Origin: a bacterium
Lineage (GTDB): Bacteria; SAR324; NAC60-12
NCBI GenBank assembly: GCA_965205865.1
Contig: CBDBHR010000030.1
Span: 288,001 to 352,000, forward strand
Direction of reading: 5' to 3'
DNA: 64,000 nt
How positions within the stretch are numbered: position 1 is the first letter of the stretch; each line of letters opens with the position of its first letter. Below are positions 47,494 to 64,000 of the stretch, piece by piece. A model generated the notes under the pieces. That model saw only the letters and a program-made list of their open reading frames with translations. It made no database searches and had not been told where the DNA came from. A program made the position numbers and the translations under genes.

Positions 47494-47900
47494 AACAATC
47501 TCGAAATTCCGAATCACTCTTGATTCCTGAAAACAGTTTTCAAAAAAAAGAGCGATTCTCCTGCAAAAACAGCAAAATCTCTATATTTTCAAACACTCAC
47601 CGGACTGATGTTCGATCTCTGGAATGGAAACGATTACCTGACCAGTGACGGCACGTATGCATTCATGGCAACCAGGGAAGGATCATCCCAGGCAAAAGCT
47701 TTTGATTGCATCGGCGTGAGCATGCGGATCTGAATCATATGATCCAGCCTGATCAGACCATTTTTTGGCTCATGCCGAAGATGGACCGCTAAAGATTTTC
47801 TGAAAGCGTATCGTTGCGAAGGATTTAATGGGGTTTGGGAAATTGTCAGTTCTCACCGAACAGATACTTACCGGACGGCGTATGCGATCAAACTAGAAAA

Positions 47901-48152
47901 TCATACCAGGTGGTCGGTCCCCAGCAGGTATTTTCCTGACGCTGGGCTCAGCCTGTCTATCAGGTGAATCTCGCTCACCCCGTAGGGGGCCAGAACCTCG
48001 GCAAAGATCGCCACCAGAATCAAGAACAAGGTGACCATCCCGCCAAACGTCCCGAGGGGCTTCTCCTTGAGAAGCCTGATGAAGAAATCCACAAACCGAC
48101 CTCGTCGCTTGGGTTCACTGACTTTGGATGGGAATTCTATGGTGTCACTCAT
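47901..48152 (-). pseudogene. dppC 5' fragment
   Basis: KEKPLG...LAPYG...KYLLGTDHL, then truncated. Confidence 0.8.
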
Positions 48153-48171
48153 GTTCTCGATTTCTCTATAG

Positions 48172-48256
48172 GTAGGGCCGGTGGTCCGGCATTCCGGTGA
48201 CGTCCCGGCCTGAAAAACGCATCGCTCGCATTGACCGGGACGTCACCCGGCCCTAC
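48172..48256. repeat. GTAGGG...CCCTAC REP-like palindrome
   Basis: gtagggccgg...gtgacgtcccgg...ccgggacgtcacccggccctac. Confidence 0.6.
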
Positions 48257-48278
48257 CGTATAGCTTTCGCGCCAGCGA

Positions 48279-48603
48279 CTATTCATACCGCACCCTCGGG
48301 TCCAGATAGGGATAAATCAGGTCGATGAGGAGATTGAGCAGCACCACCCCGGTGGCGAAAAAGAGGTTGATTCCGGAGACCATCGGGTAGTCTCTCTCAT
48401 TGAGGGCATTCACCAAGAGACGGCCGATCGCCGGCAGGTTGAAGATGTTTCCCATGATCACCGCGCCCCCAACCAGGATCGGCAACTGCAGGCCGCAGAG
48501 AGGCTGGGCGGCCGCAGCGCGGCCAATAAGCCCAGCTGAACGCGTCACCACCGGGATGAGGGCATTTTTGAGGGTGTGCCGGATCACCACGGCCCGCTCC
48601 TTC
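48279..48603 (-). pseudogene. dppB 3' fragment with a 42-bp hairpin insertion
   Basis: RHTLKNALIPVVT-RSAGLIGRAAAAQPLC-GLQLP...YLDPRVRYE. Confidence 0.85.
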
Positions 48604-48815
48604 ATTTCAATCGAGAAAATAAAAGACAATTTAATATTTGACCCCTTTCCGCCACTCGGTCCTGACCGCCTCTTCTTTTTGAAGCTCAAAAGGACACTTT
48701 CAGAGACACCGTAAGAGGGCGAGAGCAAAATCTATGAGGAGCAACTATTTCTCATGGCACTTGCCCCCTTTGAAGATTACACAATAGCAAAGATAAGACG
48801 TGGTTTCATGACATG

Positions 48816-49021
48816 GAAGGAAGCAAACAGGGGACCGCCGCAGTCCCCCATCCCGGAGGCAAGTATGCTACGAAAAATAGCGAGTGTTTTGAAGGCGCCG
48901 CCCGCTGGTCTTGAGGAAAAGTAAGTTTGAATGACCCCCATATTGGATCGCGCTATTGCAGGAAAGGAAGAACAGTGGTAAATTGCAAAGAGTTATTTCA
49001 GATTGAGGAAAAAAGGAAGTT
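48816..49021 (+). promoter_or_regulatory. Repeated ~200-bp leader/promoter element, copy 1
   Basis: Two hairpins, TTGCAG-17-TAAATT (48956-48984) and RBS. Homologous to 53466, 55541 and 58265. Confidence 0.7.
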
Positions 49022-49696
49022 ATGAAAAGATTTTGGATCATTTGGTTGATGGGAGGCGTGAGCTGGTTGCTGAGCCATGGGGCGGTTTATGGGCAACCAA
49101 CGCTGGGATTTACCCAGGAAGATCGAGAGCGCATCATTCGGCTGGAAACCACCTTAACGCTCTTTATGGAAGCTACTGATCAGCGGTTTATCGAATTACG
49201 GGAAGACATAAACAAACGCTTTGAACAGGTAGATAAACGCTTTGAACAGGTAGATCAGCGGTTTATCGAATTACGGGAAGATATGAATATCCGCTTTATC
49301 GAATTACGGGAAGACATGAATAAACGCTTTGAACAAGCAGATAAGCGCTTTGCGCAGGTGGATCAACGCTTTGAAGACATGAACAACCGCTTTGAACAGA
49401 TGATGAATACCTTGCAGCTGATTGCCGGCATTTTTACCGTCCTGACTCTGGGTGTCATCGGATTTGCCTATTGGGACCGACGCACTATTATTCGCAAAGC
49501 AAAACAAGAGACCCTGGAAACGCTGGAGCGGGACGCCGCTCCTAAAGAAGAAGCGATCATTGACCGAGCTGTAGCGCAAGCGGTTCAAGAGATCAAAAAA
49601 GACAATCGTCTGCAAGACTTGATCGCTGCCTTACGCATATTGGCCGCCACTGACCCACCTCTGGCAAACGTTCTCAAAGAATTTCATTTATTATAG
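49022..49696 (+). CDS. Signal-peptide, heptad/hendecad coiled-coil membrane protein, copy 1
   Basis: FTQEDRERIIRLETTL, repeats FEQVDKR / FIELREDMNKR, TM IAGIFTVLTLGVIGFAYW. Confidence 0.85.
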   Translation: MKRFWIIWLMGGVSWLLSHGAVYGQPTLGFTQEDRERIIRLETTLTLFMEATDQRFIELREDINKRFEQVDKRFEQVDQRFIELREDMNIRFIELREDMNKRFEQADKRFAQVDQRFEDMNNRFEQMMNTLQLIAGIFTVLTLGVIGFAYWDRRTIIRKAKQETLETLERDAAPKEEAIIDRAVAQAVQEIKKDNRLQDLIAALRILAATDPPLANVLKEFHLL

Positions 49697-49949
49697 ACTC
49701 CCTCACAACCCAGGGCGTTATCCTGGGCTAATATGTTAAGCCTTTTCAGGGCCACTTTGAGCAATTTTGCACTTATAATTAAGATAAGTCCCGCATAGGG
49801 TGGGGTTGGGGGTGAGATGTCGCGGAAAGGGGTGAAGAAAAGTTTCTGTCCTTTTTCTTTCGCCCCTTGATATCTACTAGCCCCTTGATATCTACTATGA
49901 TATAAAAAAAGTAGCGACTTTCCCATTAAGAGTTTCACCGGAGGATAAG

Positions 49950-50215
49950 ATGCCTTTTCCAGAATATTTAACCTTAGCAGAGTTCAAAAAACTCCCGGTT
50001 GAGCACATTTTACTATCAATATCGTCAGAGCAGCAAAGTGTGACGGTGCAATTGCCGGATGGGAATGAAATTATTATACGCCCTGAGTCTCCATTGAAAC
50101 CTTTACCTGTATTAAAAGGGCATATTCCAAAAGGTTAGAAAGAAGCCATTTATCATGAGTCAGAGTGATTTGATCTTATTTGATGCAGGAATGTTCATTG
50201 GCGCATTATTACAGG
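49950..50215 (+). pseudogene. Decayed antitoxin plus PIN toxin N-terminus
   Basis: ...LKPLPVLKGHIPKG*KEAIYHE, overlapped by MSQSDLILFDAGMFIGALL (from 50155), which is truncated. Confidence 0.5.
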
Positions 50216-50677
50216 AAAGAGATTGGAGTCAATTGCGTCAAAGCCATTTGGCATTTGGTCGTTTCATTCGGATTTTTCCTCGTCATCGCTTTATCCGTCA
50301 AGAGTGGAAAATCTCCGTTGCTCAATTGTGACAACATATTCATCACCTTCGTCCCTTGGCTGATACCATTGAGCGTTTAGCTCCAGCACTTTCCAGAGAA
50401 AGACCCAATGTAGAATATCCATGGAAATCTCCAGATAATCAACTCTATATCCTTGTCATTATGAATTTAATGAAATACTGGAAGAACTAGAGAGTGTTCG
50501 AGGAAGGAATTTGCTAAAATTGATGAACAGGATCATTTCAGATGAGAAATGGTCTGTGGCTTTTGGAATAGGATAATAATATATTTCATTATAACTGTAT
50601 TTCAGGAATTCTGAGATGAGGTGTCCCCATTGTGATTATGAGGAAGCTCAAGAAGTTTTCACAACAAAAGCTCTTAT

Positions 50678-50837
50678 CCCTGAGCCCCTTGGATCAGGAG
50701 GCGCGAATATAGTCCTGCCGGAGAACCTCCAGCATCATGGTGCGCATCATCCGCACGGTGGCGGCCGCCGAGACCGTTCCTAGAATCACGCTGGGGATGA
50801 GGAACGCCGCGAGATTCCCCAGCGGGTCCACGGTGAA
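50678..50837 (-). pseudogene. dppB internal fragment
   Basis: DPLGNLAAFLIPSVILGT...RMMRTMMLEVLRQDYIR. Confidence 0.75.
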
Positions 50838-50962
50838 ATTAGTGCTTTAAGATTCACTCCATCGGCACTAATTCTGCACGTTTCCAAACTAAACCAAATT
50901 AGAGTTGAGGAGAGTCCTCACCGTCATTCAGGAAAACCGAGAGGAATTTATCAGGAGATGGG

Positions 50963-51202
50963 ATGAAATTGTTACGCGGAACGAAAGTTGAACTCGATCA
51001 GAAATACCTCCATGTCACGCTAGCGGATGGGCGCATAATTTCGACGCCTCTTTCCTGGTATGAAGAACTGACTCATGCCACAGAAGACCAGCTCCATCAC
51101 TATAAATTTCTTGGCAACGGATTGGTCATCGAGTGGCATGATTTGGATTTCCATCTGGATGTTCAAGAGATGAGTATGGAAATTCAAGAAAAAGCGGCCT
51201 GA
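50963..51202 (+). CDS. DUF2442-type protein, preceded by a DUF4160-like 3' remnant
   Basis: LHVTLADGRIISTPLSWY...IEWHDLDFHL. Upstream overlapping scrap ELRRVLTVIQENREEFIRRWDE. Confidence 0.75.
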   Translation: MKLLRGTKVELDQKYLHVTLADGRIISTPLSWYEELTHATEDQLHHYKFLGNGLVIEWHDLDFHLDVQEMSMEIQEKAA

Positions 51203-51369
51203 TTGGCAGAAGTAAGGATAGGCGTTTTTGACAAACTTCGGTAGCAGGGTATGCCATGCGGTGGTCCCCTCGTAGGCTTGGCGGAGCTGGCAAAGGAAGG
51301 GTCCCCTGGAGAGGGGCTCCGACTTACCCGGGCGGAGTGCCGCAATATAGGTTTCCTCTTCTTTCCTGG

Positions 51370-51913
51370 CTGCCAGAAAATAGTCATTCTCTTTAATGCC
51401 CACCACAGCGCCACGGATGACTCGGGAGCCGCCGACACCTCCGTCAACCCCCAGGACCACGATGATCTGGAGGAGCCCTTGTCACACAATGGACATGATG
51501 GTTAACTAGAGCAGCAGCCCCTGGAAGGCCATCCAGGTATCGACAAAGCGCTGCACCGCCAGGTCCACTTTCCCTCCAAGGTATCCGGAAGTGCCGCCGA
51601 TCAGGACCGCGATGAGTACGTTGAGCGCCGTCGCAGCCAAACCGACGGATAAGGAAATACGAGCTCCGTAGAGCAGGCGGTTAAATAAGTCCCCTCCCAA
51701 GTGGTTGGTCCCCAACAGATATTGGACGGATGGGGCTTGCAGTATGTCGGCCAGGTGCATTTCCCGATAGGGATAAGGCGCCAGAACATCGGCAAAAAGC
51801 GCCACCACAATAAAGAGCAAGACGATCATCCCGCAGGCCTTCCCCAGGGGCTTCTCCCGCCACAGCCGGATGAAGAAATCCGCAAACCGGCCCCGTCGCT
51901 TGGATTCACTCAT
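51370..51913 (-). pseudogene. dppC 5' half, frameshifted and truncated
   Basis: REKPLG...QRFVDTWMAF, then GGSRVIRGAVVGIKENDYFLAAR in another frame. Confidence 0.8.
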
Positions 51914-52410
51914 ACCGTACTCTCGGGTCCAGATAGGGAAAAATCAGGTCGATGAGGAGATTGAGCAGCGCTACCCCGGTGGCGAAAAACAGATTGATTC
52001 CGGAGACCATCAGGTAGTCTCGCTCATTGAGGGCATTCACCAGGAAACGACCGAGCTCCGGCAGGTTGAAGATGTTCTCCATGATCACCGCGCCCCCGAC
52101 CAGGATAGGCAACTGCAGGCCGATCGGAGCACCACCGGGATGATGGCATTTTTGAGGGTGTGCCGGATAATCACGACCCGCTCCCTGTGTCTTTTGGACC
52201 AGGCGGTTCGGATATAATCCTGCCGGATCACCTCCAGCATCATGGTCCGGGTCAAGCACATAGTCGTCTCCGAGACCCACATGCCCAAAATTATGGCGGG
52301 AATGGCGAACATTTGAAGGTTCCCCAGGGGGGCATCGGTAAATCGAATCAGTTCCATTGAAGGTGATCACTACCACCAGACGGAGGGGTAAATGATGACG
52401 ACAGTCCCGA
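51906..52410 (-). pseudogene. dppB 3' half, frameshifted (no hairpin insertion)
   Basis: LEVIRQDYIRTAWSK / IGLQLPILVGG...YLDPRVRYE. Confidence 0.8.
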
Positions 52411-52620
52411 TGAACTTTGTCATTCTCTGCCCAATAAGCTAAATGAGGTCCTTTGCTTGACGAAAAGTTAATCATAAACTGTTACGTGTCCCCAGTTTTC
52501 ACTTACCTCAGTTAAAAATTGAAATAAATCTGGTCCGTTGAAGTTCGTTGAGCAACTTGTCTCTCTGCCAAATCTTTGCTACACTTTTATTCAGTGGAAT
52601 GACTCATCCTGAGAAGAAAG

Positions 52621-52875
52621 ATGGAATCAAAAATGACGATTGAATATCCGGCAAATTTGCCTGATATTTTGCAAGCCACTCGTTTGCAGTTTGAGCAGGA
52701 AGCACGAATGGCGATGGCTGTGAAACTGTTTGAAATGAAGCGCATCTCTTCAGGAATAGCGGCTGCTTTGGCTGGGATGGATCGTGTTTCATTTTTACTC
52801 CAGTTGCACCGATATGGAACCACAATGATCGATTTAGAAGAAGAAGAGTTGATCTCGGATATGGAAAATGCCTGA
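52621..52875 (+). CDS. UPF0175-family antitoxin-like protein
   Basis: AMAVKLFEMKRISSGIAAALAGMDRVSFL. Confidence 0.8.
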   Translation: MESKMTIEYPANLPDILQATRLQFEQEARMAMAVKLFEMKRISSGIAAALAGMDRVSFLLQLHRYGTTMIDLEEEELISDMENA

Positions 52876-53368
52876 AGCTGCTAAAATTGTCGTCAATACG
52901 GGTCCGATTTTGGCGCTTGTCGCAGCATTAGGTGATTTGAAAGTGTTACGCGCTCTCTACCAAGAGGTTTGGGTTCCTTTTGAAGTCTGCCAGGAAATAG
53001 AAGCAGGAGGTTCTCCAGGTTTTGCAGTCGAGGCATTTTTAGCAGAGCGCTGGTTCACCAAAACTTCCACCTCCCTTGAAATACCTTCTTTACTCCTCAA
53101 TTCTCTGGATCGTGGAGAGGCTTCCGTTATTCAACTGGCCCTGGAAAAAGAGATTCCCACAGTCTGTATTGATGAAGCAGCGGGTAGGCGTGTTGCCCGG
53201 TTAAGCGGATTAAACCTCACAGGATCAATCGGAATTTTACTACGCGCTCATCACGAAGTGTACCCATTTTCCATAGAAGACGCCATTCAAGGCATGCAGG
53301 ATAAAGGAGTTTGGCTCAGCCAGAGCATCATTGATTTCGTGCTGACTCAAATACAAGAAAATCACTAG
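52868..53368 (+). CDS. DUF3368 PIN-domain protein
   Basis: IVVNTGPIL, LDRGEASVI, IDEAAGRRVA, TGSIGILLRA. Confidence 0.85.
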   Translation: MPEAAKIVVNTGPILALVAALGDLKVLRALYQEVWVPFEVCQEIEAGGSPGFAVEAFLAERWFTKTSTSLEIPSLLLNSLDRGEASVIQLALEKEIPTVCIDEAAGRRVARLSGLNLTGSIGILLRAHHEVYPFSIEDAIQGMQDKGVWLSQSIIDFVLTQIQENH

Positions 53369-53465
53369 CGTATGCGAATCAAAACCAATTATGGTTGAAG
53401 TTCAAGAGCATGCGCAATGACTTCTGTTTCACCACAATCAAAGGTTGAATCATTTTGTTAAGGTA

Positions 53466-53674
53466 GAAGGAAGAAGACAGGAGACCACTAAAGCAGTCCC
53501 CCATCCCGGAGAATATTATGTTACAAAAATTGGCGGGTGTTTTGAAGGCGCCGCCCGCTGGTCTTGAGGAAAAGTGAGCTTGAATGACCCCAATATTGGA
53601 TCGCACTATTGCAGGAAAGGAAGAACAGTGGTAAACTGCAAATAGTTATTTCAAATTGAGGAAAAAAGGAAGTT
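53466..53674 (+). promoter_or_regulatory. Repeated leader/promoter element, copy 2
   Basis: TTGCAG-17-TAAACT at 53609-53637; same hairpins. Confidence 0.7.
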
Positions 53675-54232
53675 ATGAGAAGATTTTGGATCACTTTGTT
53701 TCTGGGAGCAATGAGCTTTTTGCTGAGCCATGTAGTGGTTTATGGGCAACAAACGCTCGGATTTACCCAGGATGATCGAGAGCGTATCATTCGGCTGGAA
53801 ACCACCTTAACGCTCTTTATGGAAGCTACTGATAAGCGGTTTATCGAATTACGGGAAGATATGAACAACCGCTCGAAGCAGGTTGACAAGCGCTTTGTCG
53901 AATTACGAGAAGACATGAACAAGCGCTTTGAACAAATGATGAATACCTTACAACTGATTGCCGGCATTTTTACCGTCCTGACTCTGGGTGTCATCGGATT
54001 TGCTTATTGGGACCGACGCACCATCATTCGCAAAGCCAAAGAAGAGACTCTGGAAACGCTGGCAGGGGAGGCCGCCCCTAAAGAACAAGCGACAATCGAC
54101 CAGGCTGTGGCGCAAGCGGTGCAGGAAATCAAAAAAGACCAGCGTCTGCCAGACTTGCTCTCGGCTTTACGAAAACTGGCCGCCACCGACCCGCCTCTGG
54201 CGAACGTGCTCAAAGAATTTCATTTATTGTAG
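53675..54232 (+). CDS. Coiled-coil membrane protein, copy 2 (185 aa)
   Basis: Paralog of 49022 with fewer repeats. Confidence 0.85.
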   Translation: MRRFWITLFLGAMSFLLSHVVVYGQQTLGFTQDDRERIIRLETTLTLFMEATDKRFIELREDMNNRSKQVDKRFVELREDMNKRFEQMMNTLQLIAGIFTVLTLGVIGFAYWDRRTIIRKAKEETLETLAGEAAPKEQATIDQAVAQAVQEIKKDQRLPDLLSALRKLAATDPPLANVLKEFHLL

Positions 54233-54290
54233 CTTCAATCACGCTCCTCACTACTTAGAGGGAGGGGAAGCGCTTATCCGGAAAACCCCT

Positions 54291-54692
54291 TTATTCATAC
54301 CGCACTCTCGGGTCCAAATAGGGATAAATCAGGTCGATCATGAGATTGAGCAGCACCACCGCGGTGGCGAAAAAGAGGTTGACTCCGGAGACCATCGGGT
54401 AGTCTCGGTCATTGAGAGCACTCAGCAAGAGACGGCCGAGGCCCGGCAGGTTGAAGATGTTCTCCATGATCACGGCGCCTCCCACCAGGATCGGCAACTG
54501 CAGGCCGCAGAGAAGCTGGGCGGGCGCAGCGCGGCCAATAAGCCCAGCTGAACGCGTCACCACCGGGATGAGAGCATTTTTGTGGGTGTGCCGGATCACC
54601 ACGGCCCGCTCCTTGAGCCCCTTACCAGGCGGTGCGGATATAGTCCTGTCTTAAGACCTCCAGCATCATGGTGCGCATCATTCGCAGGGTGA
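54291..54692 (-). pseudogene. dppB 3' fragment with hairpin insertion
   Basis: RMMRTMMLEVLRQDYIRTAW...VVT-RSAGLIGRAAPAQLLC-GLQLP...YE. Confidence 0.85.
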
Positions 54693-54768
54693 CTTTACAT
54701 TCCATGTTCTGGTTCCTTCATAGCAATTTCTTATGATAAAGACCGAAGCTCAATTAAGGGAAGAAAAG

Positions 54769-55164
54769 TTAGGCAGCTAGGGTTTTTACATGAGAGTATT
54801 CCAATATATTTTGATCGACTGTCATTAAAGGATAATCATAAACTCTCGCAGTGGCCACTATGATCTGATCGGCTGGGTCCCGATGGAAATCTCCGGGAAG
54901 TTGGGTGGATTCTACCACAATCCGTGGCGTGAGTTCTATCGAATGGACACATGGATAGACCAAGGCTATATTTAACCACTCTTCGAGGGGATCTGACAAA
55001 TGCAACCGGCCATATTTTACCAGTCTGGCAACCTCCCAACACGAGATTGTGCTGATGGCCAGACCTTCTTCGGCTTGTTCACCCAGCCATTTGAGTTTTT
55101 CCGGGCTCAGCCGATCACTGCCATGAACCCACCAGACCCAGATATGGGTATCCAGAAGAATCAT
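54769..55164 (-). CDS. VapC/PIN toxin
   Basis: LLDTHIWVW, STISCWEV, HRDPADQIIVATA, LMTVD. Confidence 0.88.
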   Translation of the reverse strand: MILLDTHIWVWWVHGSDRLSPEKLKWLGEQAEEGLAISTISCWEVARLVKYGRLHLSDPLEEWLNIALVYPCVHSIELTPRIVVESTQLPGDFHRDPADQIIVATARVYDYPLMTVDQNILEYSHVKTLAA

Positions 55165-55376
55165 TTCAGCGCCTCCCAGTCTTCCAAAGCAACGGGAGCG
55201 GTAGGATCTTCGTAGGAGAAAGGTTTCCCACGTAAAGGATAGCGTGGAGCGGGCTGAGGTTTGGGAATAGTTTTGAGCACAATGACTTCCACCATTTCTC
55301 CTGCTTGAAAGGGTAGATGATTTAGCACCAAAGTGCCATCTTCGGAGAGAGTGGTTTCAATACGATGGGCTTGCAT
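55161..55376 (-). CDS. Putative antitoxin
   Basis: MQAHRIETTLSEDGTLVLNHLPFQAGEMVEVIV...DPTAPVALEDWE; ATGA overlap with the toxin. Confidence 0.75.
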   Translation of the reverse strand: MQAHRIETTLSEDGTLVLNHLPFQAGEMVEVIVLKTIPKPQPAPRYPLRGKPFSYEDPTAPVALEDWEALK

Positions 55377-55540
55377 GTTTGCCTTTCCTGAAAATGCAGT
55401 TTTTTTTCCAATGCATGGTCTTATTTTGGATTTGTTCAATCGCTTTTATTTTTATACAGCATTCCCTTGAATTTCTACAGAAAAAAATTTTACATCAGCT
55501 CCCCTGTAACGCTCTGATAGGGAATCCAATTGAGTAGCAC

Positions 55541-55732
55541 GAAAGGCAGAAGACAGGGGACCCCTAAAGCAGTCCCCTATCCTGGAGGTAAGTCTGTTAT
55601 AAAAAAATGGCGGGTGTTATGTAGGCACCCCCCGCTGGCCTTGAGGAAAAGTGAGTTTGAATGACCCCCATATTGGATCACACGATTGCATGAAAGGAAA
55701 AACAGTGGTAAACCAAGCCGTTATTTCAAATT
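55541..55732 (+). promoter_or_regulatory. Repeated leader/promoter element, copy 3, upstream of a TA pair
   Basis: TTGCAT-17-TAAACC at 55686-55714; same hairpins. Confidence 0.65.
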
Positions 55733-55869
55733 TCCCATCAAGAGATTAACCATCGGACTCACTGAATAAGGATGGGCGCTCAGTTGGGATGTGTAGGGAT
55801 CACACACTGAAAAATTCCTCTTCTCTTCCCAATCATTATGGCTCAATGAACCTTAGAAAAAAAAGCAGC

Positions 55870-56115
55870 ATGAACACAGCAGCAACCCAGAAAGTAGAAC
55901 TCCATCAAGCAATCAATCGCATCCCTGAGAATAAGCTGGAAGCCGCAAAAGTCTACTTGCATTCGCTGGCCCAAGAAGGGGCAAGCAACGAAGCTAAAAA
56001 AGGGAGCTTAGAAGGGATATGGGAAGGGACAGGACTTGAAAACCTCGACTTTGAAGCTGAATTGAAAAAACTGAGAAAAGAAATGAGTGAGGCGATCTTA
56101 TCCAGGAAATTTTAA
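55870..56115 (+). CDS. Putative antitoxin
   Basis: KVELHQAINRIPENKL...SLEGIWEG; TAATG coupling to the PIN gene. Confidence 0.7.
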   Translation: MNTAATQKVELHQAINRIPENKLEAAKVYLHSLAQEGASNEAKKGSLEGIWEGTGLENLDFEAELKKLRKEMSEAILSRKF

Positions 56116-56498
56116 TGAAATACCTTGTAGATACCGTTGCCCTAAATCGTCATTTCACGAGAAATAAAAATATCGGGAAACAAGCCCGTGAGATCCTTTC
56201 CAATCCTGACGAAAACGTGTTTTATATCTCCATTGTGAGCCTCATGGAGATTTTGTATTTATCAGAAAAAAACAGGATAGATATTTCATTGAAAGAAACA
56301 CTAAGACGGATCAATGCCAAAGAAAGCTATCAGATTGTCGAACTTGATGCAGAAATTCTCCAAGTAGCCGAAACTGTCCCATTTCCTGAGCTTCATGACC
56401 GATTAATACTTGCGACGGCAAAATGGCTTGAGGTTCCCATCATTTCAAGTGATAAGGATTTCCAAAATGTTGAAGGTATCACGACCATTTGGAAATAA
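56115..56498 (+). CDS. PIN-domain toxin
   Basis: YLVDTVAL, SIVSLMEI, ELHDRLILATA, IISSD. Confidence 0.87.
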   Translation: MKYLVDTVALNRHFTRNKNIGKQAREILSNPDENVFYISIVSLMEILYLSEKNRIDISLKETLRRINAKESYQIVELDAEILQVAETVPFPELHDRLILATAKWLEVPIISSDKDFQNVEGITTIWK

Positions 56499-56693
56499 TC
56501 CATCTTATCCTGTTTTGCTCTCCAATGTTCTCATTTCAAGTACCCTTCCCAGGAACAAGAAAGGCAACGGTTTTCCCAGGAGAGCCTTTCGTAGCACGGA
56601 AGGCAGAAGACGGGGGACCACCGCAGTAGTCCCCTATCCTGGAGGTAAAGCAGTGGAAACTCTGGAATTGTGAGAACAACCCCTTTTGCGTGC

Positions 56694-56997
56694 TTACCCA
56701 TTGAAAGGATTGATCAGTCTGGCCAGGAGGCTTCTTTTGCGTTTCCCCGTGGTGCCGTAACTACCCTCACCTCCGCGCAGTCTGGGATCGAGCAGGTCTT
56801 CCATCGCGTCACCGAACATGTTGAGGGAATAGACGGTAATCGTCAGGAAAAGCCCCGGCCAGAGCGCCAGCCAAGGGGCCGCCTCCATGTACTGACGCCC
56901 TTCGCGGCTGAGCAGTCCCCCCCAACTGGGAATCTCGACGGGCAGCCCGAATCCGAGGAAGCTCAGCGAAGCCTCGGCAATGATGACGCCGCCAATT
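56694..56997 (-). pseudogene. dppC 3' fragment
   Basis: [14 protein letters not shown]...APWLALWPG...DLLDPRLRGG. Confidence 0.8.
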
Positions 56998-57105
56998 TCG
57001 GGCAGAAGCGTGGGAACGCTTAAGGCTCTTGCCTTTCCTCATCCGTTTCGATATTTTTCCATATATTATTCTATATTGGAAGTTTTCCTGAAACTGGAAG
57101 ACAGT

Positions 57106-57648
57106 ATGGATAAAAAAAGTAGCGTTCCCATTCAACAGCACATCCACTTGATCCGAGGAAAGGAGGTGATTATCGATTCAGATTTAGCGGAACTCTATGG
57201 CGTACCAACAAAGCGGCTCAATGAACAAGTTAAGCGTAACATAGAACGTTTTCCAGAGGACTTTATGTTTCAGATGACGAAAGAGGAGCTAGCTTATTGG
57301 AGGTCGCAAATTGCGACCTCCAATCCATCCAAAGCCAAAATGGGTCTACGCAGAAAACCCCACGTATTTACAGAACAGGGAGTGGCAATGTTATCCAGTG
57401 TGCTGAACAGCCCGATAGCAGTCCAGGTTAATATCCAGATCATGCGTGCTTTTGTCCAATTCCGCAGGATGCTGGCCTCTAATCAAGAACTTCTTGCCAA
57501 AATTACGGCAATGGAGGCAAAGTATGATGAGCAGTTCAAGATGATCTTTGAAGCGATCCGCTCCATGATCGAACAAAAAACTACAAAACGACAAATAGGA
57601 TTTGCAGTTCCTTCTAATAACCAAGGAATAATATCAAATGGAGGATAA
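57106..57648 (+). CDS. ORF6N-domain (phage-type DNA-binding) protein
   Basis: [55 protein letters not shown]. Confidence 0.88.
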
Positions 57649-57713
57649 TTTGCCTGTACCTTTTCTTATATTACATAAAATGGTGGGTGTTTGGAAGGCA
57701 CCGTCCGCTGGCC

Positions 57714-58040
57714 TTATTCGTACCGCACCCGCGGGTCCAGATAGGGATAAATCAGGTCGATGAGGAGATTGAGCAGCACCACCCCGCTGGCGAAAAACAG
57801 GTTGACTCCGGAGACCATCGGGTAGTCTCTCTCATTGAGGGCATTCACCAAGAGACGACCTATCCCCGGCAGGTTGAAGATGTTCTCCATGATCACGGCG
57901 CCCCCGACCAGGATCGGCAACTGCAGGCCGCAGAGAGGCTAGGCGGCCGCAGCGCGGCCAATAAGCCCAGCTGAACGCGTGACCACCGGGATGAGGGCAT
58001 TTTTGAGGGTGTGCCGGATCACCACGATCCGCTCCTTCAT
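57714..58040 (-). pseudogene. dppB 3' fragment with hairpin insertion
   Basis: Same as 48279-48603, with a stop inside the insertion. Confidence 0.85.
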
Positions 58041-58264
58041 TTCAATCGAGAAAATAAAAGACAATTTAATATTTGACCCCATTCTAATATTTGACCCCTT
58101 TCCGCCACTCGGTCCTGACCACCTCTTCTTTTTGAAGCTCAAAAGGACACTTTCAGAGACACCGTAAGAGGGCGAGAGCAAAATCTATGAGGAGCAACTA
58201 TTTCTCATGGCACTTGCCCCCTTTGAAGATTACACAATAGCAAAGATAAGACGTGGTTTCATGA

Positions 58265-58478
58265 CACGGAAGGAAGCAAACAGGGGACCACCGCAGTAGT
58301 CCCCCATCCTAGAGGACATTATGTTACAAAAAATGGCGGGTGTTTGGAAAGCACCGCCTGCTGGCCTTGAGGAAAAGGGAGCTTGAATGACCCCCATATT
58401 GGATCGCACTATTGCAGGAAAGGAAGAACAGTGGTAAACTGCAAATAGTTATTTCAAATTGAGGAAAAAAAGGAGGTT
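58265..58478 (+). promoter_or_regulatory. Repeated leader/promoter element, copy 4
   Basis: TTGCAG-17-TAAACT at 58412-58440; GGAGG RBS. Confidence 0.7.
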
Positions 58479-59090
58479 ATGAGAAGATTTTGGATCACTT
58501 TGTTTCTGGGAGCAATGAGCTTTTTGCTGAGCCATGTAGTGGTTTATGGGCAACAAATGCTCGGATTTACCCAGGATGATCGAGAGCGTATCATTCGGCT
58601 GGAAACCACCTTAACGCTCTTTATGGAAGCTACTGATAAGCGGTTTATCGAATTACGGGAAGATATGAACAACCGCTTTGAACAGGTAGATCAGCGGTTT
58701 ATCGAATTACGGGAAGATATGAACAACCGCTCGAAGCAGGTTGACAAGCGCTTTGTCGAATTACGAGAAGATATGAACAACCGCTTTGAACAGATGATGA
58801 ATACCTTGCAACTGATTGCCGGCATTTTTACCGTCCTGACTCTGGGTGTCATCGGATTTGCTTATTGGGACCGACGCACCATCATTCGCAAAGCCAAAGA
58901 AGAGACTCTGGAAACGCTGGCAGGGGAGGCCGCCCCTAAAGAACAAGCGACAATCGACCGGGCTGTGGCGCAAGCGGTGCAGGAAATCAAAAAAGACCAG
59001 CGTCTGCCAGACTTGCTCTCGGCTTTACGAAAACTGGCCGCCAACGACCCGCCTCTGGCGAACGTGCTCAAAGAATTTCATTTATTGTAG
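58479..59090 (+). CDS. Coiled-coil membrane protein, copy 3 (203 aa)
   Basis: Near-identical to copy 2 plus one 18-aa repeat block. Confidence 0.85.
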   Translation: MRRFWITLFLGAMSFLLSHVVVYGQQMLGFTQDDRERIIRLETTLTLFMEATDKRFIELREDMNNRFEQVDQRFIELREDMNNRSKQVDKRFVELREDMNNRFEQMMNTLQLIAGIFTVLTLGVIGFAYWDRRTIIRKAKEETLETLAGEAAPKEQATIDRAVAQAVQEIKKDQRLPDLLSALRKLAANDPPLANVLKEFHLL

Positions 59091-59147
59091 CTTCAATCAC
59101 GCTCCTCACTACTAGAGGGAGGGGAATCGCTTATCCGGAAAACCCCT

Positions 59148-60110
59148 TCACTCATACCGCACTCTCGGGTCCAGATAGGGATAAATCAGGTCGATGAGGA
59201 GATTGAGCAGCACCACCCCGCTGGCGAAAAACAGGTTGACTCCGGAGACCATCGGGTAGTCTCGGTCATTGAGGGCATTCACCAAGAGACGCCCGATCCC
59301 TGGCAGGTTGAAGATGTTCTCCATGATCACCGCGCCCCCGACCAGGATCGGCAACTGCAGGCCGATCAGGGTGATAACCGGGATGAGGGCATTTTTGATG
59401 GTGTGCCGGATAATCACTACCCGCTCCCTGAGTCCCTTGGACCAGGCGGTCCGGATATAGTCCTGCCGGAGCACCTCCAGCATCATGGTGCGCATCATCC
59501 GCATGGTGGCGGCAGAGGAGGCCGTTCCCAGAATCAGGCTGGGAATGAGGAACACCGCCAGATTCCCCAGCGGGTCTTCGGTGAAAGAAACCAGCTCCAG
59601 CGGCGGCGCCCAACCCCACCAGATGGCCGGGTAGATCATGACCATAATGCCCAGCCAGAAGTTCGGCGTGGCCAGGCCGATGACGGCGAGGGAGCGCCCC
59701 ACGTAGTCGGCGGCCGTATCCTGGCGAATCGCCGAGTAGATGCCGATTGGCAGCGCGATCACGAGCCCGATGAGGATTGCCATCAAACCGAGCTCAATGG
59801 TGACCGGCAGTCTCTCTAATATCGCCTCCTCCACCGAGTTTCTCGTAAACAGGGATTCGCCAAGGCTGCCGTGCAGGAAAATATCTCCTATCCATCGTCC
59901 ATACTGCACGTAAACAGGCACGTCCAATCCCAGCATACGCTCAAGAGCTTCACGGTCTACATCCCATTGCACATTGAACATTCCCATCCTGCCCACGATG
60001 ACGTCTATGACATCGCCGGGGATGAAGCGCACCGAGAGGAAGACCAGGATGCTCAAGATAAACAGGGTGGGGATTATCAGCAATAACCGCCTGATGATAT
60101 AGGCTCTCAT
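59148..60110 (-). CDS. dppB: Peptide/nickel ABC permease (DppB type), intact
   Basis: Start MRAYIIRRLL at 60110; all motifs intact. Confidence 0.9.
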   Translation of the reverse strand: MRAYIIRRLLLIIPTLFILSILVFLSVRFIPGDVIDVIVGRMGMFNVQWDVDREALERMLGLDVPVYVQYGRWIGDIFLHGSLGESLFTRNSVEEAILERLPVTIELGLMAILIGLVIALPIGIYSAIRQDTAADYVGRSLAVIGLATPNFWLGIMVMIYPAIWWGWAPPLELVSFTEDPLGNLAVFLIPSLILGTASSAATMRMMRTMMLEVLRQDYIRTAWSKGLRERVVIIRHTIKNALIPVITLIGLQLPILVGGAVIMENIFNLPGIGRLLVNALNDRDYPMVSGVNLFFASGVVLLNLLIDLIYPYLDPRVRYE

Positions 60111-60239
60111 GTGACACACCTTATCAGTCGTTGGATGAGGACAGAATCTCCTCTTCGATGATTCAATGAGTAAAGGAGCCGGGAAGCTTGAGCCTCCCAG
60201 CTCCCTTTTCCCCGAGCTAAGCCACAAGGGATGAAACCC

Positions 60240-61484
60240 CTAATAACCCATTGCTTCCTTCAGCTCACTATCAATCCAGAGGCGGGTCAAAACCTGGTTA
60301 AATTGACCGTTTCCCATGTACACTTCATTGTTAAAACCTATGAGCCACGGTTGGACCGCGGTAAAAGCTGGAAAATTAGGAGTCCATATCGACCAGAACT
60401 CCTCTATCCCATACTGATTCAACTCTCCAGCTAACCTGTACTGCTCGTCGAGAGTGGTAGCGGCTAAGGCGGCTTCAAACTTGGCTGTATAAACCGGGTC
60501 GTTGACATTGGAGCTGTTCCAATGTGCGCCCGGCGTATAACGTTTTTGGGTGCCCACTGGATCCCCATAGTTAGCCATTTCCGCATTGATCATTTCGAAA
60601 TCCCTCTCACCTCTTTTAGCGGAAAATTCAGCTCCTGGCTGTACATCAATCTCTGCTACATCAATGCCAATCTTATTCCAGTATGAAAAGACTAATTGTA
60701 CATAGTTCAAATCGTAGCGGTCGATATGCAAGAACTTGGTCTTGAATCTAATGCCGTCCGCGCCGCGCTTGTACCCGGCCTCATCAAGGAGCTTTTCGGC
60801 ACCTTCCGGGTCGTAGTCAAAGACTTTCTTGACGTCTTCGGGCCAATCTTCAAATTGGGTGACAACCTCTGTATAAGACCGGTTTAGCTGCCCCTGGGGT
60901 ATCGTATCGGCATAACCCCCAAAGTAGGTATTGTTAATTTCTTCGAGGTTTATTGCCATTTGCATGGCCTTGCGCACCCGGATGTCGGAAAAATACGGCA
61001 ACTGAACGTTGATGCCAAAACCATTATCCGACCGACCGGTCCACGGCCATATCACGATTTCGGGGTTGGTCCGCTTAAGGCTCTCTACCTGATCGAGACT
61101 CCTGATTTGAGTGTTGCCGAGCACACCCATGTAATCAAGCTTACCCGTGCGCAGTGCCGCCAGCTGTGTTGCCACTTCGGGCATAATCAGGTTCCTTAAC
61201 TGGTCAATATAGGGCAGGCGGTTCTCCGCGTATTTTTCGTCGTAGGCCCAGTAGTCAGGATTCTTGTCCCAGGTGATAGAGCTGCCCTCGGTCCAGTCAG
61301 TCAGCATCATGGGTCCGGTGCCGACCAGGTTCCTCCAATCCGAAATGTCGCCGTGTTCCTTGATTACCTCGGGCGGGTATATCCAGGCAGACCAGTCGCC
61401 GAGGATAGAAGTCAGCGCACCGAGGTATGGCTCCTTCAGCTTAAAAACAACCGTCCATTTGTCAGTGACCTCTATCGATTCCAA
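60240..61484 (-). CDS. C-terminal part of a family 5 SBP (continuation of the M56-SBP fusion across a 1-nt frameshift)
   Basis: VGTGP, NRLPYID, FSDIRVRKAMQMAI, YDPEGAEKLLDEAG; no signal peptide of its own. Confidence 0.85.
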   Translation of the reverse strand: MESIEVTDKWTVVFKLKEPYLGALTSILGDWSAWIYPPEVIKEHGDISDWRNLVGTGPMMLTDWTEGSSITWDKNPDYWAYDEKYAENRLPYIDQLRNLIMPEVATQLAALRTGKLDYMGVLGNTQIRSLDQVESLKRTNPEIVIWPWTGRSDNGFGINVQLPYFSDIRVRKAMQMAINLEEINNTYFGGYADTIPQGQLNRSYTEVVTQFEDWPEDVKKVFDYDPEGAEKLLDEAGYKRGADGIRFKTKFLHIDRYDLNYVQLVFSYWNKIGIDVAEIDVQPGAEFSAKRGERDFEMINAEMANYGDPVGTQKRYTPGAHWNSSNVNDPVYTAKFEAALAATTLDEQYRLAGELNQYGIEEFWSIWTPNFPAFTAVQPWLIGFNNEVYMGNGQFNQVLTRLWIDSELKEAMGY

Positions 61485-61500
61485 ATCCCAACTTTGGAAA

Positions 61501-63060
61501 CTATAAGCTGTTTGGGCTTTTTTCGGTGAAACCGCTACCCATACCCAACAGACGATGATAGTTAAACTCGATATCCTGGGCCGTCAGCTCACGACCGTTC
61601 ATCGGAGGCTTATCATGCCAGTGAACGCCCTGGCGGACTTTGATGATAATAGTTAGTGGGTCGGGCTGCGACCAGCTTTCCGCCAGCGCCCCTCTCGAGT
61701 AGGCTGGAGGGACGTTGAGATATTTGAAGGCAAATTTGTCCCTATCTATTCCCCAGTCCGCGATGGCCAGCTTCTCTGTAACGACCCCGGTGGATACATT
61801 CGACCCTCCACCAGACAGCAAGGAGTCAGGACCCGGCCACTCTGCTTTCAGGGCAAAGGTTAATGTCCCGCCATACTCTGGCGCGGACACCATCTTGCCG
61901 GTGGAGGGGTCTTTGACCATGTCCGAGGCGGCAAAGGTCAAGGTCGTGAAACCAAGTACAATCATGCTGAGGAGGGCCAGCATGGAACGCCCTTTTGAGT
62001 TTCGATGATGATTTATCATAATAATCCTTTCTTTCATTTGAGAAAAAGTAAACCAAAAGCACCCCGCCTGGAAATTTTCAAGCATCATTTCCGGCTGGGA
62101 TACCGTTTTGAGTATGGTCAATCCATACGATTTCCGTTCCCTTTGAGGAACGGAAGCTAAAACCCATTGATCACAGGCCAGTTCCTGATCCAAGCGGAAC
62201 AGCCGATAGGCCAGATAGATCAACGGGTTGAACCAATAAACACACTTGAGCGCTAAAGCCCAGGTGATGAAGAGAGAATCTTTGCGTTGTAGATGGGCCA
62301 GTTCATGAGCGAGAATGAATTCCGTTTCCCGTGGGGAAAAGCGTTCGGCAAACCGGAGGGGCAGCACCAGATTGGGATGCAACCATCCGATCACTGCAGG
62401 CCCCTGAATCCGTGCGGAGACGAACACGTCCCCCTGGAACTTCAGGCCCATTGTGAGGCACAGTTTTTCGAGCAACCTTCTCATTTCCAGGGAAGGTTTC
62501 CGCTTCTCTCGCAGCAGTTGCTTCTGAAAATGCGCATGCCGGTGTAATGTGAAAAGTCCCATCATCACGAATCCCCCAAGCCACACGAAGAAAATGATCG
62601 TCATGCCGTCTATTTCCGAAAAAACAGGCCACCCGCCAACCGAGGCGGAGGATGGGGAATCTCGAGGGGGGAAGCTGGGCTCACTCAAACGCTCCGCGGG
62701 AAAGGGAGAAGCCTTTTCCTGTATCGCCGTTTTCATGGATTCCCACCGAGCCTTATTCTCTACGTTGATCTGTTGGAATAAGGCTTCGGACGCAGTGAGG
62801 GGCTTTTTGTTTTGCAGCAGGGCAAACACCCCTTGCTGCATCTTGAAGTTATAAAGGATGTTTTGCCAGGAAGGGAGGAGACTGAGTTGTGTTTGAGGGG
62901 TGACGATGATCATCATTTTAAGAGCAGGGAGCAGCCAAAGCGCGTGACTCCATTTTGCCCCAAAATAACGAACCACCGGTTTGCGAATCACGAACACGAA
63001 AACGATTAAAAGACTGGACCACAGGGTGGCCTCAGCTAATCCGTACATTAGAGTTGCCAT
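61501..63060 (-). CDS. BlaR1/MecR1-type M56 metallopeptidase fused to the N-terminal part of a family 5 SBP
   Basis: ALWLLPALK, GPAVIG, AHELAHLQRKD, WFNPLIY, DQELACD, MKERIIMI, a TM, then MVKDPSTGKMVSAPEYGG. Confidence 0.88.
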   Translation of the reverse strand: MATLMYGLAEATLWSSLLIVFVFVIRKPVVRYFGAKWSHALWLLPALKMMIIVTPQTQLSLLPSWQNILYNFKMQQGVFALLQNKKPLTASEALFQQINVENKARWESMKTAIQEKASPFPAERLSEPSFPPRDSPSSASVGGWPVFSEIDGMTIIFFVWLGGFVMMGLFTLHRHAHFQKQLLREKRKPSLEMRRLLEKLCLTMGLKFQGDVFVSARIQGPAVIGWLHPNLVLPLRFAERFSPRETEFILAHELAHLQRKDSLFITWALALKCVYWFNPLIYLAYRLFRLDQELACDQWVLASVPQRERKSYGLTILKTVSQPEMMLENFQAGCFWFTFSQMKERIIMINHHRNSKGRSMLALLSMIVLGFTTLTFAASDMVKDPSTGKMVSAPEYGGTLTFALKAEWPGPDSLLSGGGSNVSTGVVTEKLAIADWGIDRDKFAFKYLNVPPAYSRGALAESWSQPDPLTIIIKVRQGVHWHDKPPMNGRELTAQDIEFNYHRLLGMGSGFTEKSPNSL

Positions 63061-63080
63061 TTCAACACCTCCTCAAGGGA

Positions 63081-63455
63081 TCAATCCATTTTTTCTAAAA
63101 GAATCTTCAATTCCTCAATTTCTTGCTTCGTCAATAATTCTTGTTCGGCAAAACTTGTGAGCAGCGGAGAGACTTTTCCGCCAAACCAATTCTGCAAAAA
63201 ATTTCTACTTTCCAAATGCAGATACACTTTTCGACAGACCATGGGAAAATACAGATACTTCCTCTTGTCCTTTTTGAACCCCAAAATCTTTTTCTTTAAC
63301 AAGCGGTTCAACAGAGTCTTTACTGTCTTGGCCTGCCAATCCTTCTGAGGAGCAAGGGTTTCAATCACCTCTTGGGCTGATTGCGGTGATTTTTCCCATA
63401 GCACCTCCATCACTTCACGCTCTGCATTGCTGATCTTCCTTGTCATCTTCGTCAT
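63081..63455 (-). CDS. BlaI/MecI/CopY-family repressor
   Basis: ISNAEREVMEVLW, WQAKTVKTLLNRLLKK, FGGKVSPLLTSF. Start taken at the ATG 63455 behind AAAGGA (ORF track extends to 63497). Confidence 0.9.
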   Translation of the reverse strand: MTKMTRKISNAEREVMEVLWEKSPQSAQEVIETLAPQKDWQAKTVKTLLNRLLKKKILGFKKDKRKYLYFPMVCRKVYLHLESRNFLQNWFGGKVSPLLTSFAEQELLTKQEIEELKILLEKMD

Positions 63456-63477
63456 TTCCTTTTTTCGCTTTCCTTGC

Positions 63478-63837
63478 ATGATTACCTTTGTAATCATTTT
63501 ATAAGAATTACATAGGTAATCTTAGAAATCAAACTTTTTTTACGAGATTGAAAATTTTTACCGGTTTTGATAAAATTTATTATAAGTTATTGAAATATTT
63601 CATTTATATTTCATTTTCATTCTTAAAAGATATGATTACCTTTGTAATCTTTTATAAGAATTACACAGGTAATCTCAGAAATCAAACTTTTTTTACGAGA
63701 TCGAAAATTTTTACCGGTTTTGAAAAAAAATTTTATGAGATATTGAATATTTATTTTCCGTCATTGAGAAATATGATTACCTTTGTAATCATATTATAAG
63801 AATTACACAGGTAATCTTAGAAATCAAACTTTTTTTT
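63478..63837. promoter_or_regulatory. Three tandem ~141-154 bp repeats, each with two BlaI/CopY-type operators
   Basis: GATTACCTTTGTAATC at ~63480, 63634 and 63775; ATTACA(T/C)AGGTAAT at 63507, 63660 and 63802. Each is one mismatch from TACA-NN-TGTA. Confidence 0.8.
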
Positions 63838-63885
63838 GTGCTTGATCTCTTTGTAGATGACAAAAAATTCAGTCAGTGTAATTTT

Positions 63886-64000
63886 TCAGGGGAGTTTCGG
63901 TCCTGCCGCAAGGATTTCCGCACTGGCGCTTTGTTCGTAGGAGCTGAAGTTTTCTTGAAATAAAGTTGCCAATTGCGCAGCTTGCCGGTCATAGGCGTCC
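63886..64000 (-). CDS. pckA: PEP carboxykinase (ATP), C-terminal end (partial)
   Basis: DAYDRQAAQLATLFQENF...EILAAGPKLP*. Confidence 0.75.
   Translation of the reverse strand, partial: DAYDRQAAQLATLFQENFSSYEQSASAEILAAGPKLP

Follow-up and report, generated by a model that had tools for sequence, protein, structure and literature searches.

In a 64,000-nucleotide window of the SAR324-lineage assembly GCA_965205865.1 (the whole stretch of DNA analysed, to which coordinates below refer unless another locus is named), the minus strand carries a gene fusing a BlaR1-type M56 zinc protease in frame to an ATP-binding cassette (ABC) family-5 substrate-binding protein (SBP). The fusion gene stands between blaI, encoding a BlaI/MecI-type repressor, and dppB, encoding an ABC permease. 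This fusion design is real and is conserved in a small group of bacteria. We consider it probable, if only just, that the locus works as a proteolytic switch of the BlaI/BlaR1 type in which the SBP domain does the sensing outside, such that cleavage of BlaI would be gated by a ligand. Directly established are the gene order, an intact M56 catalytic signature, near-exclusive operator dyads and a conserved transducer with exchangeable SBP bodies.

Reading 5' to 3', an AT-rich operator region, blaI, the fusion gene and dppB follow each other co-directionally, with 21 nt from the end of blaI (PF03965) to the fusion start, a layout seen at six of six loci. An earlier note, made from the letters of the window alone, had proposed this arrangement of repressor, protease-SBP fusion and dppB, and all parts of it were recovered by profile matches. 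Starting blaI at the ATG at 63455 or at the ATG at 63446 gives 124 or 121 residues, respectively, and either start fits the gapless MecI alignment described below; the start at 63497 offered by the ORF finder lies inside an operator dyad and was discarded.

As assembled, the fusion is represented by two open reading frames (ORFs). They are one gene split by a +1 shift, and reading through yields 939 residues, in agreement with the roughly 939 that had been estimated. The extra base is at 61509. In X1, X3 and X4, DNA runs of three studies that each provide one covering contig (99% alike over about 200–560 bases), this base is omitted at full local depth (19.6 of 19.6, 4.94 of 4.94 and 11.4 of 11.4, respectively). 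Without it, the reading becomes ...GFTEKSPNAYSFQSW..., exactly that of the natural protein P0007, and the fusion gene retains a single terminal stop. As contigs from three runs lack base 61509, the break either arose in assembly or is a mutation confined to this strain; in the population, the fusion gene is intact. The A6 run at 61518–61523 was also tried as the frameshift site and ruled out, since the same contigs drop base 61509 instead; reading through at A6 produces an artefact, with VSPK in place of GFTE and KAQT where SPN belongs. The other coding indels listed for contigs of public runs sum to three bases (60654 with 60657; 61716) or form an offsetting pair (62141/62148), and one further listed indel falls on the fusion start codon at 63060. 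Sponge-metagenome runs from at least two studies, plus other runs, contain the window stretch, the contigs of the sponge metagenome X3 being 98–99% alike to it. Contigs of the RNA run X15 match 61333–61496 with one other letter and 61623–61834 with no other letters and three gaps, the library origin being no proof of transcription.

The fusion recurs beyond this locus. The window's genome (G000; 30 contigs, 4.74 Mb) contains exactly three M56 genes, all fused to an SBP; the other two are open, with 940 and 953 codons. Its three full blaI genes each lie directly upstream of an M56 gene, and one partial duplicate of blaI is present in addition. A sister species (G001; one contig of 4.26 Mb) has three syntenic blaI-M56::SBP loci with open frames of 936–946 codons, so that blaI directly precedes the fusion at six of six loci and the fusion frame is intact in five of six copies. 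Among the 120 database matches listed for the whole protein, ten combine PF05569 and PF00496 and the other 110 are plain SBPs. The fusion, intact in relatives, is thus not a chance recent junction, an objection that the earlier note had raised against itself. Its distribution is narrow, and no fusion was found outside this genus: when 59 further genomes from the same family, order and class were searched, none matched the M56 part, and one matched residues 359–400, that is the linker, only. In a library of 1.84 billion proteins, a single cluster is 99% identical to the M56 half, and identity falls to 32–38% for the relatives that come next. No SBP family was found in the 32 long relatives of the M56 half that were scanned (of 150 listed), their domains including PD40 propellers, CarboxypepD_reg, LRR, TonB_C and a transpeptidase domain. 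In a second search for long M56 proteins, nine of the 120 listed carry PF00496, all nine within this clade; the remaining 111 bear neither PF00496 nor any accession that we take to be an SBP family. An ESM Atlas search with P0002 returned plain family-5 SBP clusters only, at 0.85, and no fused cluster.

The protease half bears the hallmarks of BlaR1, for which we draw here and below on PMC9834060. It scores 192.9 bits against PF05569 (cut-off 31), with residues 8–349 covering profile positions 3–296 of 296, and is predicted to comprise transmembrane segments (TM) 1 and 2, the outside loop EL1 (95 residues, 56–150), TM3 and a cytoplasmic gluzincin domain. The two paralogues in G000 and the three copies in G001 also exceed the PF05569 cut-off. 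In an alignment to Staphylococcus aureus BlaR1 (PDB 8exp; E 6.7e-11, offset 51), H252ELAH256 falls on H201EXXH and E293LACD297 on E242XXXD with the same 41-residue spacing, and Cys334-Phe335 coincides with the BlaR1 autocleavage bond Ser283-Phe284 (zinc motif and bond as in PMC9834060). The zinc motifs and the aligned autocleavage residues, Phe335 included, are invariant in ten of ten aligned fusions. The penicillin-binding sensor family PF00905 was not matched in the window's fusion, its two paralogues or the three G001 copies, all of which carry PF00496 instead, indicating a BlaR-like M56 protein that is not a beta-lactam sensor. By profile, metal site, repressor partner and autocleavage-loop Phe, we assign the fusion to the BlaR-like M56 family.

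blaI covers PF03965 profile positions 1–114 of 115, and its product aligns without gaps to MecI (residues 3–122; 1sd6/1okr, 7e-23) and to BlaI (residues 2–121; 1sd4). Its Ser101-Phe102 falls on the Asn101-Phe102 bond at which BlaI and MecI are cut, and Ser is also the P1 residue of BlaR1's own autocleavage site (PMC9834060). The S-F-A sequence at this putative cleavage site is invariant in six of six copies, and the BlaI proteins of the two species share 97% identity.

Upstream of blaI, a pattern search revealed three tandem promoter/operator modules with start-to-start distances of 153 and 142 bp. Each module contains two dyads 12 nt apart, ATTAC-N4-GTAAT followed by GATTAC-N4-GTAATC, with a TATAAT/TATAAA hexamer between them. 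ATTAC-N4-GTAAT occurs seven times in the 4.74-Mb genome (about 5.7 expected from base composition), and six of the seven occurrences are the dyads at 63481–63815, in accord with the BlaI-type operators that had been noticed upstream of the operon. Known BlaI operators are of the TACA/TGTA type, which the window dyads may resemble. In the sister species, two modules are present, with unchanged half-sites and different spacer letters. As the dyads are nearly confined to this blaI and the half-sites are kept in the sister species, BlaI appears to serve its own operon as a private regulator, judging from operator sequence and distribution. A search for perfect 5-N(2-8)-5 dyads found no ATTAC/GTAAT at the other two lineages. 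The control region is tandemly amplified not only here but also in L007, the orthologous locus of the sister species (6370–6590, two modules), and in L005 (14185–14700); at the C26 locus, one of the two paralogous loci in G000, the duplication takes in the first 46 profile positions of blaI.

The SBP domain is predicted to lie outside the cytoplasmic membrane, by homology and structure prediction. An AlphaFold2 model of the intact G001 orthologue (82-row alignment; mean predicted local distance difference test score, pLDDT, 83; predicted template modelling score, pTM, 0.61) shows helices at 2–33, 35–53, 152–184 and 356–375, after which comes an entire SBP fold. Confidence is high for this fold and for the protease core, and EL1 and the 20-residue linker fall below a pLDDT of 50. 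Foldseek matched the SBP model to DppA, OppA, NikA and AccA (TM-scores by target of 0.7–0.82; DppA 6ofq, E 2e-28). The K/R-rich loop 27–38 and the K/R residues just before TM4 mark the cytoplasmic sides, and the alignment to 8exp puts TM4 directly before the SBP. Helices, K/R pattern and BlaR1 alignment thus agree on a predicted four-TM, N-out/C-out layout with a cytoplasmic protease. Signal peptides on free SBP paralogues further support the outside location, which speaks against the cytoplasmic SBP that had been considered a potential refutation. Across ten fusions, invariance is concentrated in the putative signal path: 21 of 23 columns in TM4, 37 of 45 in the first half of EL1 (EL1a) and 44 of 55 in the autocleavage-loop region, as compared to 126 of 541 in the SBP.

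The two halves of the fusion have diverged to very different degrees. Between the window copy and its syntenic orthologue L007, the N-terminal half (residues 1–380) is 92% and the C-terminal half (residues 400–939) 67% identical; the corresponding values are 95% and 53% for the C26 fusion and L008, 86% and 60% for the C23 fusion and L009, 95% and 45% for the C23 fusion and P0008, 96% and 49% for the C23 fusion and P0012, and 96% and 58% for the window copy and P0011. Synonymous divergence is likewise higher in the SBP half than in the M56 half (0.32 versus 0.15; 0.68 versus 0.10). Moreover, nearly the same bodies occur as free SBPs with their own signal peptides in other assemblies: P0007 is 98.4% identical to the window's fused SBP over 427 residues, and P0046 shares 551 of 562 residues with the fused SBP of L007. 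The recombination joint lies in the motif DPxTGKxVxAPEYGGT, which also opens mature free paralogues. The far greater divergence of the SBP half, together with free SBPs near-identical to fused bodies, leads us to conclude from sequence comparison that the sensor body has been swapped by recombination with free SBPs. The idea that a transporter's own binding protein became the sensor fits these data, as the same SBP bodies occur as free secreted binding proteins. G000 itself holds no near-identical free copy of the window's SBP (best match 70%) and no close match to the signal peptides of P0007 and P0046 (best 67%). Donors are plentiful, given 113 tblastn matches of at least 450 residues to family-5 SBPs in G000 (25–70% identity; 44 on contig C30). 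A related product is found about 5 kb downstream of the L008 fusion in the sister species (L017, G001 C1:4036235-4039462), where an SBP gene begins ...SQMKERIAMINHHRNSKGRAMLALLSMILLGFTTMTFAASDMVKDP; its product opens with the tail of an M56 protein, some 40 residues that run from ...SQMKERIAMINHH... to the end of TM4, identifying it as a 5'-truncated fusion. Its SBP body resembles that of P0008, a full fusion from another assembly.

Under the switch model, BlaI dimers would repress the operon by binding to the ATTAC-N4-GTAAT dyads. The SBP would close on a ligand, for which a small solute, peptide-like or other, is the likeliest candidate, and closure would be relayed via the nearly invariant EL1 and TM4 to the cytoplasmic zinc protease; signalling through EL1 has been described for BlaR1 (PMC9834060). 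The protease would then cut BlaI at Ser101-Phe102, lifting repression of blaI, of the fusion gene and of dppB. In addition, the SBP may pass ligand from its tethered position to a Dpp-type permease that uses DppC and ATPases from other loci. Since the SBP body recombines with more than 100 free paralogues, different strains would probably sense different ligands through one transducer. A bolder extension, which we put forward as a possibility that we would not yet back, is a plug-and-play receptor: a constant transducer (EL1, TM4, M56 and the private BlaI with its operators) would accept any of the more than 100 SBP bodies at DPxTGKxVxAPEYGGT, EL1 would read the open or closed state, and the population would amount to a library of ligand-specific switches.

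Several points weigh against the switch model. Ligand binding, coupling, BlaI cleavage and regulation are steps that we infer, and the window's own fusion copy is frameshifted as assembled. At the BlaI cleavage site, P1' is kept and P1 differs. The model gave no confident contact of the SBP with EL1 or the membrane part (at the pTM of 0.61); prediction of EL1 and the SBP as two chains returned a score of 0.00, which speaks neither for nor against binding. TM4 ends in A-A-S, a possible signal-peptidase site that could permit release of the SBP. The SBP half shows ratios of non-synonymous to synonymous substitution (dN/dS) of 0.57–0.84, which could in part reflect relaxed constraint and not new specificities. 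A sigma-70 scan of the minus strand upstream of blaI turned up no such promoter (the TTGATT-TATAAT spacing is 23 nt). Finally, the transport half is eroded, with an intact dppC at two of six loci and dppB absent at one of six, and no DppD/F-type ATPase gene was found near any of the three G000 loci.

Other readings of the locus compete with the switch model. The fusion might serve to co-produce and shed the SBP: TM4 would be an internal signal peptide, signal peptidase would cut after A-A-S and free the SBP for transport, and the M56 protein would be sensor-less or otherwise triggered. The signal peptides of free paralogues look cleavable and stop immediately ahead of the same KYVTDPTTGK motif, and some fusions read FAAQKYVTDP, to be compared with VAAQKYVTDP of the free P0029. 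In addition, a signal-peptidase site of S. aureus BlaR1 has been mapped to Gly331, directly behind TM4 (PMC9834060), a position equivalent to the post-TM4 site of the fusion, and many BlaR homologues lack a sensor domain (PMC13492132). The linker is predicted to be flexible, and the 5'-truncated copy in G001 has TM4 as its sole N-terminal anchor. However, TM4 is invariant at 21 of 23 positions across lineages, while signal peptides of free paralogues vary widely, and its hydrophobic stretch of about 17–19 residues is long for a signal peptide. EL1a, with 37 of 45 invariant positions, has no role in shedding; moreover, a plain operon would co-express the SBP, and yet the fusion is kept at six of six loci. 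We therefore regard shedding as unlikely. Alternatively, the tethered SBP could report docking on, or cycling with, the DppBC permease, and thus importer flux, like other transporter-coupled sensors. The position of dppB directly after the fusion at five of six loci agrees with this idea, and conserved blocks in the otherwise variable SBPs would fit a common docking surface. With dppC missing or broken at four of six loci and no ATPases nearby, however, the loci often lack a full cognate transporter, and we find transport-state sensing quite improbable.

It could also be argued that the fusions have no signalling role and are by-products of SBP-cassette recombination in a genome rich in mobile elements, with the loci in decay. 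The surroundings of the loci contain permease fragments, transposases, PIN toxin genes and partial duplications, and the frameshift of the window copy as well as the dN/dS of the SBP half could be read in the same vein. Nevertheless, five of six copies are open and three other samples restore the sixth, the M56 half has a dN/dS of 0.26–0.38, BlaI is almost unchanged between the two species, catalytic and cleavage-site residues are invariant, and the junction has stayed in frame through many SBP replacements, making the absence of a signalling role very unlikely. That the M56 and SBP genes were merely misjoined during assembly, at their common linker repeat, might be suspected since it is precisely at the TM4/linker repeat (61911 to 61972) that the listed short contigs are interrupted; those of X1, X3 and X4 end at 61884–61911 and restart at 61972–61973, and among those listed none spans the repeat. 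Two assemblies, of which one consists of just one 4.26-Mb contig, nevertheless have the same in-frame junction at three loci each, and it is also found in ten protein clusters from other assemblies, with synteny on both sides common to both species, and the odds of a chimera are accordingly minute.

Table 1. Features of the blaI–fusion–dppB locus and of its surroundings in the window.
Feature	Position	Strand	Remarks
Three tandem promoter/operator modules	63478..63890	-	pattern search
Operator dyads	63481-63494, 63507-63520, 63635-63648, 63660-63673, 63776-63789, 63802-63815		two per module
blaI, BlaI/MecI-type winged-helix repressor	63081..63455	-	PF03965, 1.3e-33
M56::SBP5 fusion gene, 939 codons + stop	60240..63060	-	broken as assembled by extra base 61509
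Upstream ORF of fusion, 519 aa	63060..61501	-	PF05569, 9e-57, and first 55 positions of PF00496
Downstream ORF of fusion, 414 codons	61484..60240	-	remainder of PF00496, 9.3e-46
Extra base breaking the frame	61509..61509	-	left out in contigs of X1, X3 and X4
Peptidase_M56 (BlaR1-type) transducer, aa 8-349	62014..63039	-	PF05569
HELAH motif	62307..62293	-	translation, coordinates checked
ELACD motif	62184..62170	-	translation, coordinates checked
TM4, aa 356-378, KGRSMLALLSMIVLGFTTLTFAA	61927..61995	-	most conserved protein segment; model helix 356-375
Linker SDMVKDPSTGKMVSAPEYGG, aa 379-398	61867..61926	-	same motif opens mature free SBP paralogues
ABC family-5 SBP domain (cluster C, DppA/OppA-type), aa 399-939	60243..61866	-	PF00496, Foldseek
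dppB, ABC permease, 320 aa, intact	59148..60110	-	ATG 60110 (MRAYII...); PF00528 and PF19300
Gene for ~200-aa protein	58479-59090	+	
dppB 3' fragment	58109..57717	-	permease remnant, residues 209-333
ORF6N gene	56980-57648		opposite strand; separates dppB and dppC remnants
dppC 3' fragment	56999..56700	-	permease remnant, residues 222-322
PIN-domain gene	56115-56498	+	
PIN-domain gene	55164..54769	-	
dppB fragment	54702..54294		
DUF3368 gene	52868-53368		
dppB fragment	52399..51909		
dppC fragment	51937..51365		
dppB fragment	50840..50655		
Gene for ~200-aa protein	49022-49696	+	
Other permease fragment	48728..48279		
Class II (B12-dependent) ribonucleotide reductase, 1243 aa	40718-44449	-	TSCPD domain; barrel domain matched in two stretches

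The transport genes around the fusion are less constant than the blaI-fusion pair. dppB of the window is intact, lies directly after the fusion and is 76% identical to C26 dppB over residues 8–333; 57 nt beyond it follows a convergent gene for a coiled-coil membrane protein, and only fragments of dppC remain. In the orthologous L007, dppB is intact and no dppC was found. Both genes are intact and contiguous at the C26 locus, and its counterpart L008 has no dppB and a dppC fragment only. At the C23 locus, dppB is intact and an intact dppC stands behind a Transposase_31 gene; L009 combines an intact dppB with a broken dppC. The genome holds 18 matches to PF08352 (DppD/F-type ATPases), none in the window, the nearest lying on C30 about 250 kb away. 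The proposal that the fusion heads its own permease operon therefore stands as far as dppB is concerned, which follows at five of six loci, and fails for the remainder of the importer, with dppC in fragments and no ATPase gene near. The conserved unit is blaI plus the fusion (six of six loci), usually with dppB (five of six), and not a whole importer. In this genome, an extreme expansion of SBPs goes along with shared motors: the 113 family-5 matches compare with about eight DppD/F-type ATPase pairs.

Downstream of dppB, 11.5 kb (47500–59100) are littered with pieces of ABC permease genes, interspersed with two PIN-domain genes, an ORF6N gene, a DUF3368 gene and two genes for coiled-coil membrane proteins. 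The mixture suggests that cassettes have recombined here repeatedly and that toxin-antitoxin-like modules have been inserted. In both species, the 3' side of these cassettes repeatedly carries a convergent gene for a protein of about 200 residues (in the window twice; L005 7356–8063; L017 2060–2644; L007 16154–16768). The protein has an N-terminal signal/TM segment, RFxELREDMNxRFEQ-type repeats and a second TM segment, and matches no Pfam family above cut-off. A Transposase_31 (YhgA-like) gene lies between dppB and dppC in L004 (9817–10890) and in L009 (11101–12162); its presence at the same place in both species indicates that the insertion predates their split. Further elements are a Mutator-family transposase and a pyruvate phosphate dikinase fragment downstream in L007, and an IstB-like gene in L009. 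An Rfam search of 59000–64000 gave nothing near any gathering score. Farther away in the window, the extra length of a class II ribonucleotide reductase may be due to an insertion such as an intein.

The locus shares its general plan with S. aureus BlaR1/BlaI and MecR1/MecI (PDB 8exp-8ext; PMC9834060), in which a repressor gene is followed by that of a four-TM M56 protease with an outside C-terminal sensor, a topology predicted for the fusion as well. HEXXH/EXXXD spacing is identical, Phe occupies the aligned autocleavage P1' position as well as repressor position 102, and palindromic operators precede the repressor gene. Unlike BlaR1, whose penicillin-binding domain is acylated, the fusion has a 540-residue family-5 SBP as its sensor, which would bind ligand reversibly. 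Its EL1 of 95 residues is nearly invariant in the first half, P1 at the BlaI site is Ser, and the gene downstream encodes an ABC permease, not a beta-lactamase or PBP2a as at bla/mec loci. The M56 half is only 32–38% identical to its nearest relatives outside the clade. M56 proteins with other sensors are no rarity. PMC13492132 counts 254 M56 architectures in InterPro, those with a non-transpeptidase sensor outnumbering true BlaR, and names TonB_C, transpeptidase, M23, Plug, CarbopepD_reg_2, DUF4825, Amidase_3 or no domain. As in the non-canonical BlaIR systems described there, e.g. Clostridioides difficile CenIR, an M56 protein with a non-transpeptidase sensor is encoded beside a BlaI-like repressor; in contrast to the architectures named there (which are not all 254), the sensor here is an SBP. 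One supplementary file of that paper contains neither PF00496 nor SBP_bac_5, and the M56-SBP architecture may already be listed, unremarked, in InterPro. The earlier note did not know the architecture as described, and full-text literature searches likewise found no paper on an M56-SBP fusion. The fusion is thus a member of the known BlaIR family with a new sensor, and exchange of the sensor body with free transport SBPs adds to its interest.

Venus-flytrap modules serve as outside inputs of other membrane transducers too: BvgS-type kinases, chemoreceptors reading free SBPs (DppA-Tap) and LuxP-LuxQ all rely on sensing by a periplasmic-binding-protein fold. Unlike in BvgS and the chemoreceptors, the output of the fusion would be proteolysis of a repressor, not phosphorylation or methylation, and its sensor body can be exchanged for free transport SBPs, to which it is about 98% identical. 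In the importers OpuA and GlnPQ, an SBP is fused to the permease; the fused SBP is similarly tethered to the membrane, but its tether is a protease and not a permease. With the Dpp/Opp importers (Escherichia coli DppABCDF, 8z1z), the locus shares the family-5 SBP fold and the adjoining dppB. Unlike the complete DppABCDF system, the window locus has no intact dppC and no ATPase genes.

BlaR1 is the textbook receptor that converts an outside chemical event into repressor cleavage, and the signals of most of its relatives are unknown. The chemistry of an SBP sensor, reversible Venus-flytrap capture, is well understood, and the sensor can be purified as a free protein, making the signal of a non-canonical BlaIR system testable. 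If the proposed switch is true, M56 transducers could be driven by non-covalent ligand binding and not only by acylation. The natural swapping of sensor bodies represents a ready-made experiment on receptor modularity and a possible template for engineered ligand-inducible switches. It also suggests how a sponge symbiont with more than 100 binding proteins may select which uptake genes to express.

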